Both the position numbers and the translations under genes were made by a program. The notes under the pieces are model-generated. The model saw only the letters and a program-made list of their open reading frames with translations, searched no databases and was not told the DNA's origin. DNA of 64,000 nucleotides, from contig JAFGTC010000267.1 in the NCBI GenBank assembly GCA_016934335.1, positions 10 through 64,009 on the forward strand. Reading direction: 5' to 3'. This DNA is from Candidatus Omnitrophota bacterium (GTDB lineage: Bacteria; Hinthialibacterota; Hinthialibacteria; Hinthialibacterales; Hinthialibacteraceae). Below, in pieces: positions 8,303 through 14,960 of this stretch (positions are counted from its first letter, which is position 1; each line of letters opens with the position of its first letter).

Positions 8303-9664
8303 ATGAGTGATTTCACTACTTCGCAGTCTTTGGAAATTATTCTCGATTCGATTGCGGACGGCGTGTTTACCGTCGATCCCCAGTGGAGGATCACATCCTT
8401 CAATCGAGCGGCGGAATCCATTCTCGGCATTCCTCGCGAAGAGGCGGTGGGAGTGCCTTGCTGCGAAGTATTCCGCTCCAGCATCTGTGAAAGTCAGTGC
8501 GCTCTCAAAGAAACGCTCGATACGGGGAAATCGATCATCAACAAGACCATCTATGTGATCAATGTTATGGGCGAACGCATTCCGATCAGCATATCCACCG
8601 CGATCTTAAAGGATAAAGAAGGCCGCATGATCGGCGGCGTCGAAACATTCCGCGATTTGAGTCAGGTCGAGGAACTTCGTAAAGAACTTTCCCAAAAATA
8701 TTCGTTTTCCGACATCATCGGCCGGAGCGCCTCCATGCGGAAAATCTTCGATATTCTTCCCCAAATTGCCCAAAGCGACGCAACCGTTCTGCTGCTGGGC
8801 GAGAGCGGAACGGGAAAGGAACTGTTCGCGCGAGCCATCCATCAATTGTCTTCTCGCCATAAAAAAAATTTTGTCACCGTGAACTGCGGCGCTTTGCCCG
8901 ATACTCTCTTGGAATCCGAACTTTTCGGCTATATGGCGGGTGCTTTCACCGATGCCAAGCGCGATAAGCAGGGGCGTTTTTCATTGGCTCATCAAGGCAC
9001 AATGTTTCTGGATGAAATCGGCGACATCTCTCCCGCCATGCAGACGCGGCTGCTTCGCGTGCTTCAGGAAAAAACCATCGAGCCGCTCGGTTCATCCAAA
9101 ACCGTCCACGTCGACGTTCGCGTGATCGCAGCGACCAACAAGGATTTAAACCAGGAAGTGAAGGAAGGTAATTTTCGCGAGGATTTGTTCTATCGCATTA
9201 ACGTCATCCGCATCGTCATTCCCCCTCTGCGGGAGCGCAAAGAGGATCTTCCGCTTTTGATTCAGCATTTTATGTCGAAATATAATCGTTTGCACAACAA
9301 GAATATTTCCAGCGTCTCCGATTCGGTCCTGGCGGCGTTAATGAGTCATGGCTATCCGGGAAACGTGAGAGAATTGGAAAACATTCTCGAACACGCCGCC
9401 GTTTTATGCAGCGGCGGGATGATCGAAATGTCCCATCTGCCCTCTCCATTCAATGCGGAAGCATCATCCCATGCTGTCGAAGGAGGAAAAAGTTTAACAT
9501 TGAAGGAGTTGGAAGCGCTGCACATCAAGCGCTCCATCCAACAGCATCATGGAAATCGCACCGCCGCCGCCAAAGCCTTGGGCATCCATCCCAGCACCCT
9601 CTTCCGAAAAATCCACGCTCTCGGCATTGAACTGCCTGAACATGACGGCCGATTTAGAAAATAG
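8303..9664 (+). CDS. Sigma-54-dependent transcriptional activator (PAS - AAA+ - Fis-type HTH), no receiver domain
   Basis: N-terminal PAS (DGVFTVDPQWRITSFNRAAESILG) with a Cys cluster PCCEVFRSSICESQC. AAA+ Walker A GESGTGKE, the GAFTGA-like loop as GAFTDA, and an ESELFGY motif. C-terminal HTH AAKALGIHPSTLFRK. Confidence 0.85.
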   Translation: MSDFTTSQSLEIILDSIADGVFTVDPQWRITSFNRAAESILGIPREEAVGVPCCEVFRSSICESQCALKETLDTGKSIINKTIYVINVMGERIPISISTAILKDKEGRMIGGVETFRDLSQVEELRKELSQKYSFSDIIGRSASMRKIFDILPQIAQSDATVLLLGESGTGKELFARAIHQLSSRHKKNFVTVNCGALPDTLLESELFGYMAGAFTDAKRDKQGRFSLAHQGTMFLDEIGDISPAMQTRLLRVLQEKTIEPLGSSKTVHVDVRVIAATNKDLNQEVKEGNFREDLFYRINVIRIVIPPLRERKEDLPLLIQHFMSKYNRLHNKNISSVSDSVLAALMSHGYPGNVRELENILEHAAVLCSGGMIEMSHLPSPFNAEASSHAVEGGKSLTLKELEALHIKRSIQQHHGNRTAAAKALGIHPSTLFRKIHALGIELPEHDGRFRK

Positions 9665-9832
9665 TAGCATGGCGTTTTGCGATTTTATTGAATTGATACA
9701 ATAGCATTTTGCTATGATAATATCTATCTCCCGCCTAAAGTCATTATCTTTATCTCATTTTTAATGAACATGTTATGTGTTTATAATTTCAAATCCTTCT
9801 AATTGGTATGTTTCTTGATTGTCTATATAACC

Positions 9833-10231
9833 ATGAAAGTCGCTATCCCGATTTGGAACCATAGGATCTCTCCCGTTTTCGATTGCGCCCGAAAAATGAT
9901 CGTGGTGGACATCGAAGAGGGCGGAGAACGCCAGCGCACAGAATACAATCTGGATGAGCTCCTTTTTTTACAACGGGCCAGCTATTTGAAAAAATTGAAC
10001 ATCGACATTTTGATCTGCGGCGCCATATCCAGGCCGCTGGAAGAATTAATACAAACAAAAGGCATCAAGATTGTTTCATACCTTTGCGGTAATGTGGAGG
10101 AAATTTTGCAGGCTTTGTGCAATGACAGACTTTCTCAAGATCAATTTTTGATGCCCGGGTGCTGCGGCCGGAGGCGGTCTCGGTTTCGACATCGAGGATC
10201 GCGCTGCCGTAAGAAAGGAGCAACAGCATGA
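9833..10231 (+). CDS. NifX/NifB-C-terminal-like (dinitrogenase FeMo-cofactor-binding family fold) protein, Cys/Arg-rich C-terminal tail
   Basis: MKVAIPIWNHRISPVFDCARKMIVVD ... ILICGAISRPL is the family pattern. The tail reads GCCGRRRSRFRHRGSRCRKKG. The ORF opens with TTG at 9803; the ATG at 9833 is preferred. Confidence 0.6.
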   Translation: MKVAIPIWNHRISPVFDCARKMIVVDIEEGGERQRTEYNLDELLFLQRASYLKKLNIDILICGAISRPLEELIQTKGIKIVSYLCGNVEEILQALCNDRLSQDQFLMPGCCGRRRSRFRHRGSRCRKKGATA

Positions 10232-10590
10232 AAATCGCCGTCAGTTCGCAGGGCGAGACATTGCAAAGCCAAGTGGATCCCCGTTTTGGCCGGGCGCGCT
10301 ATTTTTTAGTAATCGATCCGGAAACGAAGGAATTTACCTGCCATGACAACGTCCAGAATTTAAACGCCGCTCAGGGGGCGGGCATTCAAGCCGCCCGCAA
10401 TGTGATCAACCTGGGCGTCGAGGGCGTCATCACGGGCAACCTGGGCCCTAAAGCGTTTGCGACCTTGAATGCCGGAAACATCGCCATGTATATCGGCGCC
10501 AAAGGAACTGTTCAAGATGCAATCGATCAACTTCAAGCCGGCCGACTACAGGCCGTGAGCCAGCCGAACGTAGAAGGTCATTGGGTGTAG
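10228..10590 (+). CDS. NifX/NafY-like dinitrogenase iron-molybdenum cofactor family protein
   Basis: MKIAVSSQGETLQSQVDPRFGRARYFLVIDPETKEF...GVEGVITGNLGPKAF. ATGA overlap with the upstream gene. Confidence 0.7.
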   Translation: MKIAVSSQGETLQSQVDPRFGRARYFLVIDPETKEFTCHDNVQNLNAAQGAGIQAARNVINLGVEGVITGNLGPKAFATLNAGNIAMYIGAKGTVQDAIDQLQAGRLQAVSQPNVEGHWV

Positions 10591-10596
10591 ATTTAT

Positions 10597-11475
10597 ATGA
10601 AGTCGTATTTGGAGTGTATTCCCTGTTTTGTTCGCCAGACGCTCGAATCCGTTTCTATGGTTTCCGAGGAGGAATCGGTTCGAGAAGAAGTGCTTCGAAG
10701 CGTTTTGCTTGATGTCAGCAGCATGGATCTGAGCGATCCGCCGCCGCTTATGGGGCAGCGCATTCATCGCTTGATTCGTGAAAAAACAAACATTCTTGAT
10801 CCCTACAGCGCCGTCAAGAAGCAATATAACCAAGCCGTCTTAGCGCGTTACGATCGGTTTCAATCGCAAATTCAAAACGCCGCCGATCCGCTTGAAACGG
10901 CGATTCGATTGGCCATCGCCGGCAACATTATCGATTGCGGCGCGTTTGCCGACCTCAATGAAGCCGCCGTGAAAAAATCGATCGAAAGCGCATTGAATGA
11001 ACCGCTGCTTTGGGATCGGAATGAATTTCGCAAGGCGGTCGACGACGCCGAATCCATTTTGTACCTGGCTGACAATGCGGGGGAAATAGTGTTCGATCGG
11101 CTGCTCATCGAGCAATTGCCCATGGAAAAAATTACGGTCGCCGTGCGCGGATATCCGATTCTCAACGACGTCACCCTTGCCGACGCGCAGGAAGTCGGAT
11201 TGATGGATATGGTCGACGTCATCGATAACGGCTCTGATGCGCCCGGTACGATTTTATCCGATTGCCGCGAAGATTTTGTCAAGCGATTTCATGAAAGCGA
11301 TTTGATATTCGCCAAAGGTCAAGGCAACTATGAAACTTTAAGCGACGCCGGCCGGGATATTTTCTTTTTACTGAAAGCGAAATGCCCCGTGATCGCCAGA
11401 GACATCGGCTGCAAAGTCGGGGCGTTGATATTGAAGAGAACCTTCGCTGCGGCGCCGGTCGCGGCGGAGATCTAA
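10597..11475 (+). CDS. DUF89 family protein (ARMT1-like metal-dependent phosphatase fold)
   Basis: N-terminus MKSYLECIPCFVRQTLE and overall length are typical of DUF89 proteins. Confidence 0.6.
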   Translation: MKSYLECIPCFVRQTLESVSMVSEEESVREEVLRSVLLDVSSMDLSDPPPLMGQRIHRLIREKTNILDPYSAVKKQYNQAVLARYDRFQSQIQNAADPLETAIRLAIAGNIIDCGAFADLNEAAVKKSIESALNEPLLWDRNEFRKAVDDAESILYLADNAGEIVFDRLLIEQLPMEKITVAVRGYPILNDVTLADAQEVGLMDMVDVIDNGSDAPGTILSDCREDFVKRFHESDLIFAKGQGNYETLSDAGRDIFFLLKAKCPVIARDIGCKVGALILKRTFAAAPVAAEI

Positions 11476-11537
11476 GAACGGCGTTCTGCGCCATAAATGC
11501 TTCATTGAGAACATAGGTATGAAAGGAGGTCTTTATC

Positions 11538-11924
11538 ATGCCTAGAGGTGATGGAACAGGCCCTGGAGGGCTGGGACCCATGACGGGACGCGCGGCGGGC
11601 TTCTGCGCCGGCTATTCAGTTCCAGGCTATATGAATCCCGGTTTCGGATTTGGCTTTGGATGGCGCGGGCGCGGCGGTGGACGAGGGCGGCGCAACCGTT
11701 TCTTTGCAACAGGATTGACCGGATGGCAGAGGAATGCTTATGCATGGCCCGCCTACGCTCCTCCCGCACCCGTCTATCCTCCCTTTCAGGGAACGACGCC
11801 TGTCAATCCACAGACTCGCGATCAAGAGATCGATGCGTTGAAAGGACAGGCCGAGTATTTTCAAGATGCGTTAGATGGAATCAATAAACGGATTGCCGAA
11901 TTAGAAAAACAATCCGACGCCTAA
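11538..11924 (+). CDS. DUF5320 family protein
   Basis: Characteristic N-terminus MPRGDGTGPGGLGPMTGRAAGFCAGY, a Gly/Arg-rich middle, and a C-terminal coiled coil (EIDALKGQAEYFQDALDGINKRIAELEKQ). Strong AAAGGAGG RBS. Confidence 0.6.
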   Translation: MPRGDGTGPGGLGPMTGRAAGFCAGYSVPGYMNPGFGFGFGWRGRGGGRGRRNRFFATGLTGWQRNAYAWPAYAPPAPVYPPFQGTTPVNPQTRDQEIDALKGQAEYFQDALDGINKRIAELEKQSDA

Positions 11925-11998
11925 CCTGACCGTTGTGCGCCGGAATGATTGTGATTCACATTGATTCCGGCGCGCCGTTTTATTTTGGAAGAAGGTGT

Positions 11999-12682
11999 AT
12001 GATGAAAATAGCTATTACTGCCAAAGAAGCCTCTTTGGATTCGAATGTGGATCCCCGTCTGGGACGCTGTATGCATATGGCTCTCATCGATCTATCGAAT
12101 GGGAGTCATGAGTTTATTGAGAATCCCAATGCGGGGGCGGCCAGCGGCGCCGGGATTCAAACGGCGCGCCTGCTGGCGGAAAAAGGCGTTCAAGTTGTGC
12201 TGACGGGAAACTGCGGGCCCAATGCGCATGAAACGCTGCGCGCGGCGGGCATCGACGTGATTGTCGGCGTCAGCGGACCGATTCAAGCCGTGATCGAGCA
12301 GTTTCAAGCCAATTCTTTTACGCCCGCTCAAAGCCCCAATGTCGACGCTCATGCCGGAATGCAGCAAACCGCTGAGATGGATTCAGCCAATGAAACGAGC
12401 AATCCGACTGGAGGCATGGGGCAAGGACAAGGAATGATTGGAGGACAGGATATGAATCAAGGTCAAGGCATGGGCCAAGGCGGCGGCATGGGCCGGGGCG
12501 GCGGTATGGGCCAAGGCGGCGGCATGGGCCAAGGCGGCGGTATGGGTCAAGGCGGCGGCATGGGCCGAGGCGGCGGCATGGGCCGAGGCGGCGGTATGGG
12601 CCGGGGCGGCGGCAGGGGTCGAGGCGGCGGCGGGGGTCGAGGCGGCGGCGGGGGTCGAGGCGGCGGCGGCCGCGGTCGATGA
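11999..12682 (+). CDS. NifX-like domain protein with C-terminal (MGQGGG)n / RGG low-complexity tail
   Basis: MMKIAITAKEASLDSNVDPRLGRCMHMALIDL...GVQVVLTGNCGPNA. Then about 11 repeats of MG(Q/R)GGG followed by GRGGGGG repeats. GGAAGAAGG RBS upstream. Confidence 0.6.
   Translation: MMKIAITAKEASLDSNVDPRLGRCMHMALIDLSNGSHEFIENPNAGAASGAGIQTARLLAEKGVQVVLTGNCGPNAHETLRAAGIDVIVGVSGPIQAVIEQFQANSFTPAQSPNVDAHAGMQQTAEMDSANETSNPTGGMGQGQGMIGGQDMNQGQGMGQGGGMGRGGGMGQGGGMGQGGGMGQGGGMGRGGGMGRGGGMGRGGGRGRGGGGGRGGGGGRGGGGRGR
12470..12667 (+). repeat. Coding tandem repeat, 18-nt unit (atgggccaaggcggcggc) x ~11, degenerating into gggggtcgaggcggcggc units
   Basis: Direct inspection: consecutive 18-nt units with 0-3 substitutions encode the MGQGGG/MGRGGG/GGRGRGG tail of the NifX-like protein. 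Confidence 0.85.
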
Positions 12683-12759
12683 CAATAATTGAACGGGGCG
12701 ACAGAATCAATCGATCTGGCGAAAAGTTTTGCTGCAGGCTTACATGGTGATTTATATCT

Positions 12760-13626
12760 ATGAGAATTGCAATTGCTAGCGGAAAAGGCGGTACAGGAAA
12801 AACCACCATTTCCTCCAATTTAGCTTATACAGAAGCAAAAAAGGGGAAAAAGGTCGTCTATGTAGACTGCGATGTTGAAGAGCCCAACGGACATTTATTT
12901 TTGAAGCCGGAAATTGTGTCGACTCGCCCCGTAGGGATCATGGTTCCCTCCGTTGATCAAGATTTATGCAATCATTGCGGATTATGCGGTCAAATCTGCG
13001 AATACAGCGCGATCGTGTGTTTGGGATCGGAGACGCTTGTGTTTCCCGAGATGTGTCATTCGTGTGGAGGATGCTGGCTGGTGTGCCCTGAGAACGCCAT
13101 TTCGCAAGTTATGAAGGAAATGGGACGGGTTGAGATCGGCCGTGCGGGATCGATAGATTTCGTGCAGGGCGTCTTGAATATCGGCGAGGCGATGAGTCCG
13201 CCCGTCATCCGGGCGGTTAAGAAAGCCATGCCGGAGTCTGAGATTCAAATACTCGATGCGCCGCCCGGGACTTCATGCCCGGTGATCGAAACTATTCGAG
13301 ACTGCGATTATTTGATTTTAGTCACCGAGCCCACGCCGTTTGGTTTAAACGATTTAATCTTGGCGGTCGACATGGTGCGCACCTTACATTATTCGTTCGG
13401 CGTCATCATCAATCGGGCGGATTTGGGATATTCGGATGTGCAGGATTATTGCCGAAGGCAGCACATTCCCATCCTGGCGGAATTTCCCGACGATCGGCGA
13501 GCGGCCGAAGCGTATTCGAAAGGATATTTAGTCAGCGAAGTCATCCCCGAATTCGCCGGATTATTAGACGGCTTGGTCGACCGAATCCAATTCGAACTTG
13601 AGAGCGATAAGGTAGGCGCATCATGA
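12760..13626 (+). CDS. MinD/ParA-family P-loop ATPase with 2x[4Fe-4S] ferredoxin insert
   Basis: Deviant Walker A ASGKGGTGKTT. Two Cys clusters CNHCGLCGQICEYSAI and CHSCGGCWLVCPENAI. A second nucleotide-binding region DAPPGTSCP. Confidence 0.75.
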   Translation: MRIAIASGKGGTGKTTISSNLAYTEAKKGKKVVYVDCDVEEPNGHLFLKPEIVSTRPVGIMVPSVDQDLCNHCGLCGQICEYSAIVCLGSETLVFPEMCHSCGGCWLVCPENAISQVMKEMGRVEIGRAGSIDFVQGVLNIGEAMSPPVIRAVKKAMPESEIQILDAPPGTSCPVIETIRDCDYLILVTEPTPFGLNDLILAVDMVRTLHYSFGVIINRADLGYSDVQDYCRRQHIPILAEFPDDRRAAEAYSKGYLVSEVIPEFAGLLDGLVDRIQFELESDKVGAS

Positions 13627-14561
13627 AAGAAATGGTCATCATCAGCGGAAAAGGCGGAACCGGCAAGACCTCGATTGTCGCCTCATTTGCGGCTTTGGCG
13701 AAAAACTCGGTGCTGGCCGACTGCGATGTAGACGCCGCCGATCTGCATCTCATCCTCGAGCCGGACATCTATTGGAAAGAGAAATTTTCCGGCGGCTCCC
13801 GTGCTCGGATCCTGCCGGGGCATTGCACAGCGTGCGGGAAATGCGAGGAAATATGCCGCTTCGACGCCATTTACTTCGACGGGCCGGGTAACGGCGTGCA
13901 GGAAAAAACCTTTCGCATCGATCCCATCACCTGCGAAGGATGCGGCGTGTGCGCCTGGTTTTGCGCCGAGAAAGCCATCGAATTCGCTCCCGCCGTGAAT
14001 GGCGAATGGTATAAATCGGAAACGCGCTTCGGCCCCATGGTTCACGCGCGCTTAGGGGCGGGGGAGGAAAATTCCGGGAAACTGGTCACTCTGGTTCGAA
14101 AAGAAGCTGGAAAGATCGCCGAAGAAAAAAATATAGACCTGTTGATAGTCGACGGTTCGCCGGGCATCGGCTGCCCCGTCATTGCGTCGATCACCGGCGC
14201 CGATATGGTTGTGATTGTGACGGAGCCGACGTTGAGCGGACTGCATGACCTGAAGCGAGTCGCCAAACTCACTCGACAATTCGACATTCCTACGCTGGCG
14301 TGCATCAACAAGTGGGATTTGAATCCCGAACTCGCCTCCGCGATCGAAAGCGAAGCGCGTCAACAAGAATTAGGATATGCCGGGCGCGTTCGGTATGACA
14401 AAGCCGCCACTCTCTCGCAAATCGAGAAAAAATCGATCGTTGAATATCAGTCCGGTGGAGCGGCGGAGGATATACAAGCAGTCTGGTCAAAAGTGAGATT
14501 GGAATTAGAGAAGTTAGGTGCGTCTGTTTCTAATTCCGTTTTCTCAATTGGAAAATCCTAA
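13623..14561 (+). CDS. MinD/ParA-family P-loop ATPase with 2x[4Fe-4S] ferredoxin insert (paralog)
   Basis: ISGKGGTGKTS. Cys clusters CTACGKCEEICRFDAI and CEGCGVCAWFCAEKAI. Motif DGSPGIGCPV. ATGA overlap with the previous gene. Confidence 0.75.
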   Translation: MKEMVIISGKGGTGKTSIVASFAALAKNSVLADCDVDAADLHLILEPDIYWKEKFSGGSRARILPGHCTACGKCEEICRFDAIYFDGPGNGVQEKTFRIDPITCEGCGVCAWFCAEKAIEFAPAVNGEWYKSETRFGPMVHARLGAGEENSGKLVTLVRKEAGKIAEEKNIDLLIVDGSPGIGCPVIASITGADMVVIVTEPTLSGLHDLKRVAKLTRQFDIPTLACINKWDLNPELASAIESEARQQELGYAGRVRYDKAATLSQIEKKSIVEYQSGGAAEDIQAVWSKVRLELEKLGASVSNSVFSIGKS

Positions 14562-14624
14562 TTCAAAAAATGCGTCAATTCATTTTGTCGCTTTATGTCA
14601 AAGAAAGAACAGGAGACAATAAAC

Positions 14625-14960
14625 ATGAAAATTGCCATTCCCGTGGCCGACGGCCGGTTGTGCGCTCATTTCGGGCATTGCGAAGAATTCGCTGTGATGG
14701 ATGTTGACGATTCGAAAACGATTATAGGTCAGACACGGCATACGCCGCCCATGCACGAACCGGGCGTCTTGCCGCGCTGGCTGCATGAAATGGGAGTCAA
14801 TGTCATTATCGCCGGGGGCATGGGGCAGCGAGCGCAGGCCATCTTCGCCCAGAATGACATCGAAGTCGTGGTCGGCGCGCCCACGGGCGATCCGGAAGAA
14901 ATCGTCCAGAATTATCTGCAAGGGATGATCCAATGCGGCGATAATTTATGCGACCATTAA
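14625..14960 (+). CDS. NifX/NifB-C-terminal-like dinitrogenase FeMo-cofactor family protein
   Basis: MKIAIPVADGRLCAHFGHCEEFAVMDVD...NVIIAGGMGQRA. AGGAGA RBS 8 nt upstream of the ATG at 14625; the longer ORF starting at 14595 is unlikely. Confidence 0.65.
   Translation: MKIAIPVADGRLCAHFGHCEEFAVMDVDDSKTIIGQTRHTPPMHEPGVLPRWLHEMGVNVIIAGGMGQRAQAIFAQNDIEVVVGAPTGDPEEIVQNYLQGMIQCGDNLCDH

Follow-up and report, generated by a model that had tools for sequence, protein, structure and literature searches.

A methionine-rich variant of the IssA-type cationic tail on an orange-protein-like NifX domain in an orp operon of Candidatus Omnitrophota

The DNA considered here, henceforth the window, is a stretch of 64,000 nt from contig JAFGTC010000267.1 of a Candidatus Omnitrophota metagenome-assembled genome (MAG). 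Two adjacent genes on its plus strand encode proteins with Gly/Arg-rich low-complexity regions: a DUF5320 gene and, directly downstream, a gene in which a NifX-family domain is followed by a tail encoded by an 18-nt tandem repeat. An initial annotation had drawn attention to this pair, and its coordinates, the 18-nt repeat, the NifX-like domain, the DUF5320 assignment and the operon setting are all borne out by Tandem Repeats Finder (TRF) and Pfam. The present analysis adds three things: the identity of the operon (orp), the finding that the tail is conserved and homologous to part of DUF5320, and a published precedent, the protein IssA. The parts of the two genes are as follows.

11538–11924, plus strand: DUF5320 gene, 128 aa (PF17253, 82.5 bits, model positions 1–99 of 99)
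11538–11642, plus strand: DUF5320 residues 1–35, conserved motif MPxGDGTGPxGMGPMTGRAAGxCAGYPVPGYMNP (column conservation)
11643–11822, plus strand: DUF5320 residues 36–95, cationic low-complexity region of Gly, Arg, aromatic residues and Pro, pI 11.8, charge +6.8 (composition)
11823–11921, plus strand: DUF5320 residues 96–128, acidic helix QEIDALKGQAEYFQDALDGINKRIAELEKQ, conserved in the alignment as QELDxLKGQAEYLEDxLDGIKKRIEELE
11999–12682, plus strand: orange-protein/IssA-like gene with tail, 227 aa (open reading frame, ORF; start possibly at 12002)
11999–12358, plus strand: globular NifX-family domain, aa 1–120 (Pfam, AlphaFold2, Foldseek, phmmer)
12359–12412, plus strand: acidic linker, aa 121–138, pI 4.05 (composition; low-confidence structure prediction, pLDDT below 50)
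12413–12466, plus strand: three degenerate hexapeptide units, GMGQGQ, GMIGGQ and DMNQGQ (in-frame register)
12467–12610, plus strand: eight near-identical 18-nt units encoding GMG(Q/R)GG (TRF; in-frame register)
12611–12682, plus strand: Met-free RGG end, GRGRGG, GGGRGG, GGGRGG and GGRGR, with the stop codon (in-frame register)

TRF reports one array, at 12467–12667 (period 18 nt, 11.2 copies, 90% matches, no indels, score 276), and this is the sole sizeable tandem repeat of the whole window. Read in the frame of the gene, the repeat exceeds these limits and comprises 15 hexapeptide units beginning at 12413. Units differ from one another by synonymous changes in Gly codons, or by single-base changes that exchange Q for R or convert between M, R and G; the 11 Met residues of the tail are spaced exactly six residues apart (M-x5-M). 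The G+C content of the repeat region is 75%, compared with 50% for the window. Because the longest exact repeat inside the array is 37 nt, an assembler working with k greater than 37, as ordinary assembly k-mers are, can resolve it; judged from the assembled sequence, there is no sign of an assembly artefact. Two minus-strand ORFs that cross the repeat (12318–12818 and 12383–12685) were considered as genes and rejected: their translations are Pro/Arg/Leu-rich or Ala-rich readings of the complement that lack support, and they are artefacts of the high G+C. Rfam returned no RNA family anywhere within the window.

The protein that precedes the repeat is readily placed. Nitro_FeMo-Co (PF02579, IPR003731) matches residues 14–103 with 82.3 bits against a cut-off of 26.3, and AlphaFold2 (AF2), run on a 36-sequence alignment, predicts aa 1–116 with pLDDT (per-residue confidence) above 90. 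The best Foldseek match is 2WFB, the apo orange protein of Desulfovibrio gigas (TM-score 0.92, root-mean-square deviation 1.1 Å, 36% identity), accompanied by 1RDU, 2YX6, 1O13, NifX and NafY (TM-scores up to 0.92). A phmmer search of PDB sequences with the tailed protein returned 2WFB first (5.6e-16) and MTH1175 second (3.2e-15). As for the start of the protein, a GAAGG ribosome-binding site lies upstream of the gene and the closest relative begins MKIAIT. AF2 places a strand at aa 3–8, so the N-terminus would belong to the globular fold as its first strand, evidence against a signal peptide that is cleaved off.

Residues 121–225 are predicted to be disordered (pLDDT below 50, no secondary structure). 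The tail proper, aa 139–227, is 89 residues of 63% Gly, 12% Met, 11% Arg and 10% Gln, with a pI of 12, a net charge of about +9 (+8.8) and neither aromatic residues nor His. Charge is concentrated at the end: the final 40 residues are 70% Gly and 23% Arg and carry +8.5. The whole protein has a pI of 8.84 and two Cys. Under three possible start codons it has no exact match in a collection of 15 billion proteins, in which the adjacent DUF5320 protein (MBN2329271.1) is present; public annotation may have skipped the tailed gene or flagged it as a pseudogene.

Is the tail private to this genome? Full-length homologs and genome loci were collected with queries that contained tail words, and in these tail-seeded sets a Gly/Met/Arg low-complexity region directly follows the domain in 120 of the 120 best full-length matches and in 75 of 79 genome loci. 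Since such queries bias both sets, the test was rerun with the domain alone: aa 1–120 were searched without a word index against 1.84 billion cluster representatives and the best 150 were analysed. A Gly-rich tail is present in 90 of these 150 nearest representatives (60%). The initial annotation had held that orthologs lacking the tail entirely would point to a neutral expansion; the majority carry it. Except where stated, the family counts that follow refer to the domain-only set.

Of the 90 tails, 86 are net positive. Arg occurs at least three times in 74 and is absent from two; Met occurs at least three times in 52, fewer than three times in 38, and not at all in 14. His accounts for 22 of 2903 tail residues. 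By these counts the best-conserved property of the tail is its positive charge, with Met enrichment second. Three architectures are found: the protein ends with the region, as in the window (26 proteins); 25–80 residues follow it, which in those read form a coiled coil of ∼45 aa (39 proteins); or more than 80 residues follow it, which in those read comprise a coiled coil and a 2x[4Fe-4S] ferredoxin (17 proteins). The other eight fall outside these length classes. Some homologs (P0122, P0123, P0135, P0138 and others) are tandem NifX–NifX proteins in which His/Glu/Cys-rich linkers between the two domains replace the Gly-rich tail, a further form of decoration of the domain in this family. Overall, the comparisons portray the tail as a widespread, ancient and variable feature of the family.

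The order of residues in these tails follows a strict (Gly-X)n grammar. Among the domain-only set 78% of Met residues stand within GMG, compared with ∼25% expected from shuffled tails; MM is seen once where 36 are expected and MGRG 88 times where 10 are expected, and in 0 of 500 shuffles were the observed counts attained. Met–Met spacings are nearly all even (2, 4, 6, 8), GMGMG (that is, M-x-M) occurs 48 times, and at G-X-G positions X is Arg in 29%, Met in 22% and Gly in 22%. Met makes up 10–18% of family tails against 2.5% of the globular domain, a roughly 4-fold to 7-fold increase.

Periodicity extends to the DNA. Tandem repeats are detectable in 70 of the 80 genes compared, with periods of 18 nt (19 genes), 30, 42, 24 and 36 that combine units encoding MGRG (12 nt) and MGRGGG (18 nt); the periods of the relatives span 12–60 nt and are nearly all multiples of six, and tail lengths run from 14 to 89 aa. 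Such a pattern reads as the signature of repeated in-frame slippage under compositional constraint. The family would keep re-expanding sequence from MGRG and MGRGGG units, and the 18-nt array of the window would be the product of a recent round of in-frame replication slippage. Slippage by units divisible by 3 nt changes how long the tail is and leaves the frame intact, and there is thus no on/off switch. The window lies at the extreme: its 11.2 copies (at most 7.6 elsewhere) and its TRF score are the highest among the 80 genes, and its 89-aa tail equals the maximum of the unbiased set, in which the median is 29 aa.

The initial annotation had further expected the locus to be prone to slippage. 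This has indirect support: the arrays of relatives vary in unit combination and length, and the assembly of the closest relative breaks at the repeat. That relative (L080, positions 999–1463; Logan SRR22287499) has a domain 78% identical to the window's, and its contig of 1463 bp runs out just as its own Gly/Met/Arg repeat begins, within the first units, GGIPQGQGMGRGQGMG. A break of this kind is typical of repeat-induced breaks and suggests that short-read assemblies break at such arrays. No relative more than 78% identical was found; the maximum was 57% in the genome scan and 58% in the metagenome scan.

The upstream gene bears directly on the origin of the tail. Its product matches MBN2329271.1, from a Candidatus Omnitrophota MAG, at 100% identity and opens with MPRGDGTGPGGLGPMTGRAAG...GFGFGWRGRGGGRGRR. 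The initial annotation had reported this opening correctly; its label of low complexity does not apply, as residues 1–35 are a conserved motif and rank among the best-kept stretches of the family, with at least 90% conservation in most columns and an invariant Cys across 69 locus-derived and 119 database members (the consensus can also be written with G at position 3, left as x above: MPGGDGTGP). Low complexity is confined to the cationic region that follows, in which X at G-X-G positions is R in 43%, G in 24%, W in 17% and F in 9% (120 members). The heptad-like pattern of residues 96–128 makes a coiled coil probable.

The same layout recurs behind the NifX-family domain. Where a relative retains the coiled coil, the sequence following the domain matches PF17253 positions ∼8–99 with 27.9–32 bits against a gathering score of 27; the tailed protein of the window has itself no PF17253 match at E≤0.01 in Pfam. 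Together with the common (G-X)n grammar, the matches of the relatives indicate that the tailed protein consists of an orange-protein-like domain joined to a DUF5320-derived region. The low-complexity regions of the two adjacent genes thus belong to one conserved module. The tail shares with DUF5320 the Arg-rich (G-X)n grammar but differs in three respects: it has neither the N-terminal MPxGDGTGP...C motif nor the coiled coil, and its hydrophobic X is Met rather than Trp or Phe. The fusion is without a coiled coil in the lineage of the window and in L001, a Planctomycetaceae MAG; in both, only the separate DUF5320 gene supplies one.

By gene content and order the locus is the orp (ORange Protein) operon of this Candidatus Omnitrophota MAG. 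Its genes, at 8303–14960, all lie on the plus strand, as established by Pfam on nine neighbouring ORFs, and no terminator-like site was found on that strand between 9800 and 14960. The members other than the pair described above are these.

8303–9664, plus strand: OrpR-like sigma-54 enhancer-binding protein, PAS + AAA+ + helix-turn-helix (Pfam Sigma54_activat 3.3e-72, PAS_9, HTH_8)
9833–10231, plus strand: NifX-like paralog a, with Cys-rich basic C-terminus GCCGRRRSRFRHRGSRCRKKGATA (Pfam Nitro_FeMo-Co, 32.5 bits)
10228–10590, plus strand: NifX/orange-protein-like paralog b, 120 aa, untailed (Pfam Nitro_FeMo-Co, 79.1 bits)
10597–11475, plus strand: ARMT1-like/DUF89 protein (Pfam PF01937, 3.1e-66; equivalent position in related loci)
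12760–13626, plus strand: MinD/ParA-type P-loop ATPase with inserted 2x[4Fe-4S] ferredoxin domain, Orp3/Orp4-like (Pfam CbiA, ParA, Fer4)
13623–14561, plus strand: second MinD-like ATPase with 2x[4Fe-4S] ferredoxin domain, Orp3/Orp4-like (Pfam Fer4_7, CbiA, ParA)
14595–14960, plus strand: stand-alone NifX-like 'Di-Nase' domain of MrpORP (Orp9) type (Pfam, 77.1 bits; motifs)

In Desulfovibrio vulgaris, Orp3 and Orp4 are MinD-like ATPases with a ferredoxin domain, the orange protein itself is Orp8, a non-covalent binder of [S2MoS2CuS2MoS2]3-, and Orp9 (MrpORP) bears a Di-Nase domain; the ORP (orange protein) components form a physical complex and MrpORP is found at a cell pole (PMC6345978). Expression is controlled by OrpR, a redox-sensing sigma-54 activator in which three Cys of the PAS domain bind a [4Fe-4S] cluster as the sensor (PMC8359166). 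The four-Cys sequence PCCEVFRSSICESQCAL in the PAS region of the activator at 8303–9664 fits an OrpR identity. At the other end, the Di-Nase protein has the motifs CAHFGHCE and TPPMHEPG and the terminal CDH described for MrpORP (PMC6345978). Its relatives in three other loci (L001, 8339–9691; L027, 8600–9832; L028, 5856–7088) are encoded by ORFs of ∼410–450 aa, presumably fused to the Mrp P-loop domain.

Between these lie the two further NifX-like paralogs. For paralog a, the TTG start listed at 9803 is probably spurious, the real start likely being MKVAIPIW at 9833; its C-terminus, GCCGRRRSRFRHRGSRCRKKGATA, is a third basic tail of the operon. Paralog b, which is 41% identical to the tailed protein, finds 1RDU (1.1e-17) and 2WFB (1.6e-15) in the PDB, and 2WFB is thus matched about equally by paralog b and by the 227-aa tailed protein (5.6e-16). 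In many loci of Planctomycetota and Omnitrophota the ARMT1-like/DUF89 gene separates the NifX-like paralogs from DUF5320; it is unmentioned in the Desulfovibrio orp papers (PMC6345978 and PMC8359166).

Gene order is kept in dozens of the 79 retrieved genome loci (Planctomycetota, Desulfobacterota, Dehalococcoidia, Nitrospirales and others); the sigma-54 activator gene heads the cluster in many related loci, and the Planctomycetaceae locus L001 is collinear with the window and has the same tail-only architecture. A scan for the sigma-54 -24/-12 consensus found nothing convincing upstream of the operon (21 matches in the whole window, 26 expected). A weak sigma-54-like TGGTAT-N5-TTGAT at 9804–9819 and a sigma-70-like TTGATA-17-GATAAT at 9693–9721, both upstream of the operon, are likewise unconvincing.

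A cationic tail on a domain of this family has one studied precedent. IssA (iron-sulfur storage protein A, PF2025) of Pyrococcus furiosus consists of an IPR003731 domain and an unstructured tail of 70 residues, pI 10.7, in which a Pro-rich part gives way to one rich in Gly, Arg and aromatics (Vaccaro et al. 2017, PMC5524996). The tail is proposed to wrap an anionic thioferrate polymer, (FeS2-)n, formed on the globular domain, with nanoparticles of up to 300 nm as the result; IssA tails diverge in sequence but retain their chemistry and some repeating pattern. The same study describes 'IssX', a clade of uncharacterised mesophilic proteins that combine a high pI with a Gly-rich tail, and places MTH1175 in the IssA clade (PMC5524996).

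We put at about 0.5 the probability of the following explanation, which is drawn by analogy with IssA. The gene at 11999–12682 would encode a tailed paralog from the orange protein/IssA branch of the NifX family, working within the orp operon of an anaerobe. Its compact domain of ∼116 aa would be a putative binder of inorganic metal-sulfide clusters, and its tail the low-complexity part of a DUF5320 module that in most relatives continues into the coiled coil and often into the 2x[4Fe-4S] ferredoxin. Flexible and polycationic, the tail would capture or hold inorganic anions beside the globular domain, the candidates being thioferrate-like (FeS2-)n, fragments of Fe-S, and thiomolybdate or Mo-Cu-S clusters. 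Arg would contribute charge and Gly flexibility, and Met may take the hydrophobic or soft-ligand role that Trp and Phe hold in IssA and DUF5320. It is possible that the tail also aids the cohesion of ORP-complex components.

Several points weigh against this explanation. The anion-binding role of the IssA tail is itself a proposal (PMC5524996), and for the ORP complex in vivo the literature goes no further than 'putatively involved in cell division'. Tails are lacking from the orange protein of D. gigas (2WFB, 120 aa) and from 60 of the 150 nearest representatives, so the basic function of the domain does not depend on one. An electrostatic model leaves Met enrichment unexplained, and half of the tail in the window, composed of Q-type units, carries little charge. 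Finally, the function assigned to Met-type tails is argued by analogy, and kinship with IssA is suggested by domain and tail criteria and the MTH1175 match.

A bolder extension would join the Met/Arg tails and the Arg/Trp/Phe regions of DUF5320 into one ancient disordered module that builds a metal-sulfide storage scaffold in anaerobes. Multimerised by the coiled coil, it might form a cytoplasmic, redox-sensitive nanoparticle or condensate in strict anaerobes that stores or hands over Fe-S as thioferrate, or Mo/Cu thiometallates, with Met as soft ligand or oxidation switch. We consider this speculative and distinctly unlikely; if true, mesophilic bacteria would have in the orp system their equivalent of iron-sulfur storage by IssA, and not a cell-division device.

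Among the alternatives, the one that survives best, while still on the unlikely side, assigns the tail a role in assembly. Here the (G-X)n tail and the DUF5320 region would act as multivalent 'stickers and spacers', multimerised by the coiled coil, that bring together the ORP complex, either by contacting or stimulating the MinD/ParA-like Orp3/Orp4 or by forming a condensate-like body; oxidation of Met might confer redox sensitivity. Stimulation of ParA and MinD ATPases by basic flexible peptides of partner proteins is commonplace, and in the operon the tail strictly co-occurs with two MinD-like ATPases and DUF5320, the low-complexity region being fused to a coiled coil in many relatives. The physical association of ORP proteins and the polar position of MrpORP (PMC6345978), as well as control by a redox-sensing activator (PMC8359166), point the same way. 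The Desulfovibrio complex, however, was defined with an untailed ORP, and the condensate and redox-switch elements are borrowed by pure analogy from eukaryotic Met-rich low-complexity domains.

The regular Met residues had led the initial annotation to think of Cu(I)/Ag(I)-binding motifs. Spaced Met residues in a Gly matrix would then chelate Cu(I) or another soft ion and feed the orange-protein-type domain. The Desulfovibrio domain, nearest in structure, holds [S2MoS2CuS2MoS2]3- (PMC6345978), which lends the Cu(I) idea circumstantial colour, and the 4–7-fold enrichment of Met (10–18% against 2.5%) and the 48 instances of M-x-M in family tails agree with it. None of the tests made here supports it, however. 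Met is less conserved than Arg: it is dispensable (none in 14 of 90 tails, fewer than three in 38), while Arg is nearly universal. Known Met-rich Cu(I) sites (CusF, CopC/PcoC, CueO, Ctr1) are extracytoplasmic, whereas the operon encodes proteins of cytoplasmic type (Fe-S ATPases, a sigma-54 activator). Such sites have clusters of MxM or MxxM, often with His; the tail in the window has M-x5-M and no His, and His is rare in the family (22 of 2903 residues). The physiological status of the ORP Mo-Cu cluster is moreover uncertain, and we regard soft-metal binding as improbable.

It is more doubtful still that slippage by itself accounts for the feature, a short functional basic tail having been inflated in this lineage with the extra copies idle. 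The window holds the highest copy number and TRF score of the 80 genes (11.2 copies against at most 7.6) and a tail that equals the maximum of the unbiased set (89 aa, median 29 aa), and the close likeness of its units implies that they expanded recently. Across phyla, though, the grammar, the positive charge and the position are all conserved, so selection acts on the region as a whole and only its excess length can be neutral; within that limit, the unusual length in the window may well reflect neutral growth of what was a shorter functional tail. Least probable of all is nucleic-acid binding. ParA-type systems often use the nucleoid as matrix, so that an RGG/GAR-type (glycine–arginine-rich) tail could serve as a tether to nucleoid or RNA. 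The nucleic-acid or phase-separating RGG region suggested in the initial annotation is possible on sequence grounds (multiple RGG/RG repeats at 12485–12679, classical in the C-terminal 24 residues, 12611–12679), and Methanosarcina DUF5320 and DUF134 proteins have been flagged for an RG-type motif with predicted G-quadruplex binding (PMC7565180), but the argument is one from motif resemblance, every fused partner is a metal-cluster domain (NifX-like or ferredoxin), and the tail lacks the aromatic residues typical of RNA-binding GAR domains.

The feature is relevant to anaerobic metal–sulfur trafficking. Among strict anaerobes the orp operon is widespread. DUF5320, for its part, lacks a known function: a literature search for it returned two papers, neither with functional data. 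The one cationic tail studied on a NifX-family protein is that of IssA, and the findings connect work on ORP with work on IssA, two fields that seldom refer to one another; the MrpORP paper contrasts Orp9 with the cationic tail of IssA and is silent on tailed ORP paralogs (PMC6345978). One conserved module, a strict (Gly-X)n grammar and a common variant with Met in place of aromatic residues offer handles for experiments. For annotation, such tails should be neither masked nor dismissed as assembly noise, and contigs tend to break there.

How, then, does the tailed protein compare with known systems? With IssA it has in common an N-terminal IPR003731/NifX domain followed by an unstructured, Gly-rich, cationic tail, few Cys, and, at the level of the family, tails in which sequence is poorly conserved while chemical character and repeat pattern are kept. 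By composition it falls among IssX proteins (pI at least 8, fewer than 10 Cys, at least 10% Gly in the last 40 residues); for the IssA clade proper (pI at least 9, fewer than 5 Cys, at least 20% Gly in the last 40) its 2 Cys and 70% Gly suffice and its pI of 8.84 falls narrowly short. The IssA tail is aromatic (Trp) and preceded by Pro-rich sequence, whereas that of the window lacks aromatics and has Met and Gln instead; IssA-like Arg/Trp/Phe chemistry is found in the adjacent DUF5320 protein. The setting, an orp operon in a mesophilic bacterium, is also unlike that of IssA, and the likeness is one of sequence and predicted structure.

Desulfovibrio ORP (2WFB) is the best match of the domain in both sequence and fold, and the rest of the Desulfovibrio kit is shared: an OrpR-type activator whose PAS domain contains Cys, a pair of MinD-like ATPases carrying ferredoxin inserts, and a MrpORP-type Di-Nase. 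Three differences stand out. D. gigas ORP is an untailed protein of 120 aa, while the window has two candidate orthologs, one untailed (10228–10590) and one tailed (11999–12682); the orp genes of the window lie on one strand, while those of Desulfovibrio form two divergent operons; and the window adds the ARMT1/DUF89 and DUF5320 genes. Eukaryotic RGG/GAR tails (SmD3, with GRGRGMGRG, and fibrillarin) likewise alternate Gly and Arg with an occasional Met, a likeness of pattern that lends no support to homology, arginine methylation or an RNA context. In a search of the literature for the strings themselves GMGRGGG and MGRGMGRG were not found, and GRGMGRG was found only for eukaryotic SmD3. The variant with Met in place of aromatic residues is common in Planctomycetota, Omnitrophota, Desulfobacterota and other groups. 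Taken together, these comparisons identify the feature not as something categorically new, but as a Met-rich variant of the known IssA-type cationic tail, situated in an orp operon.

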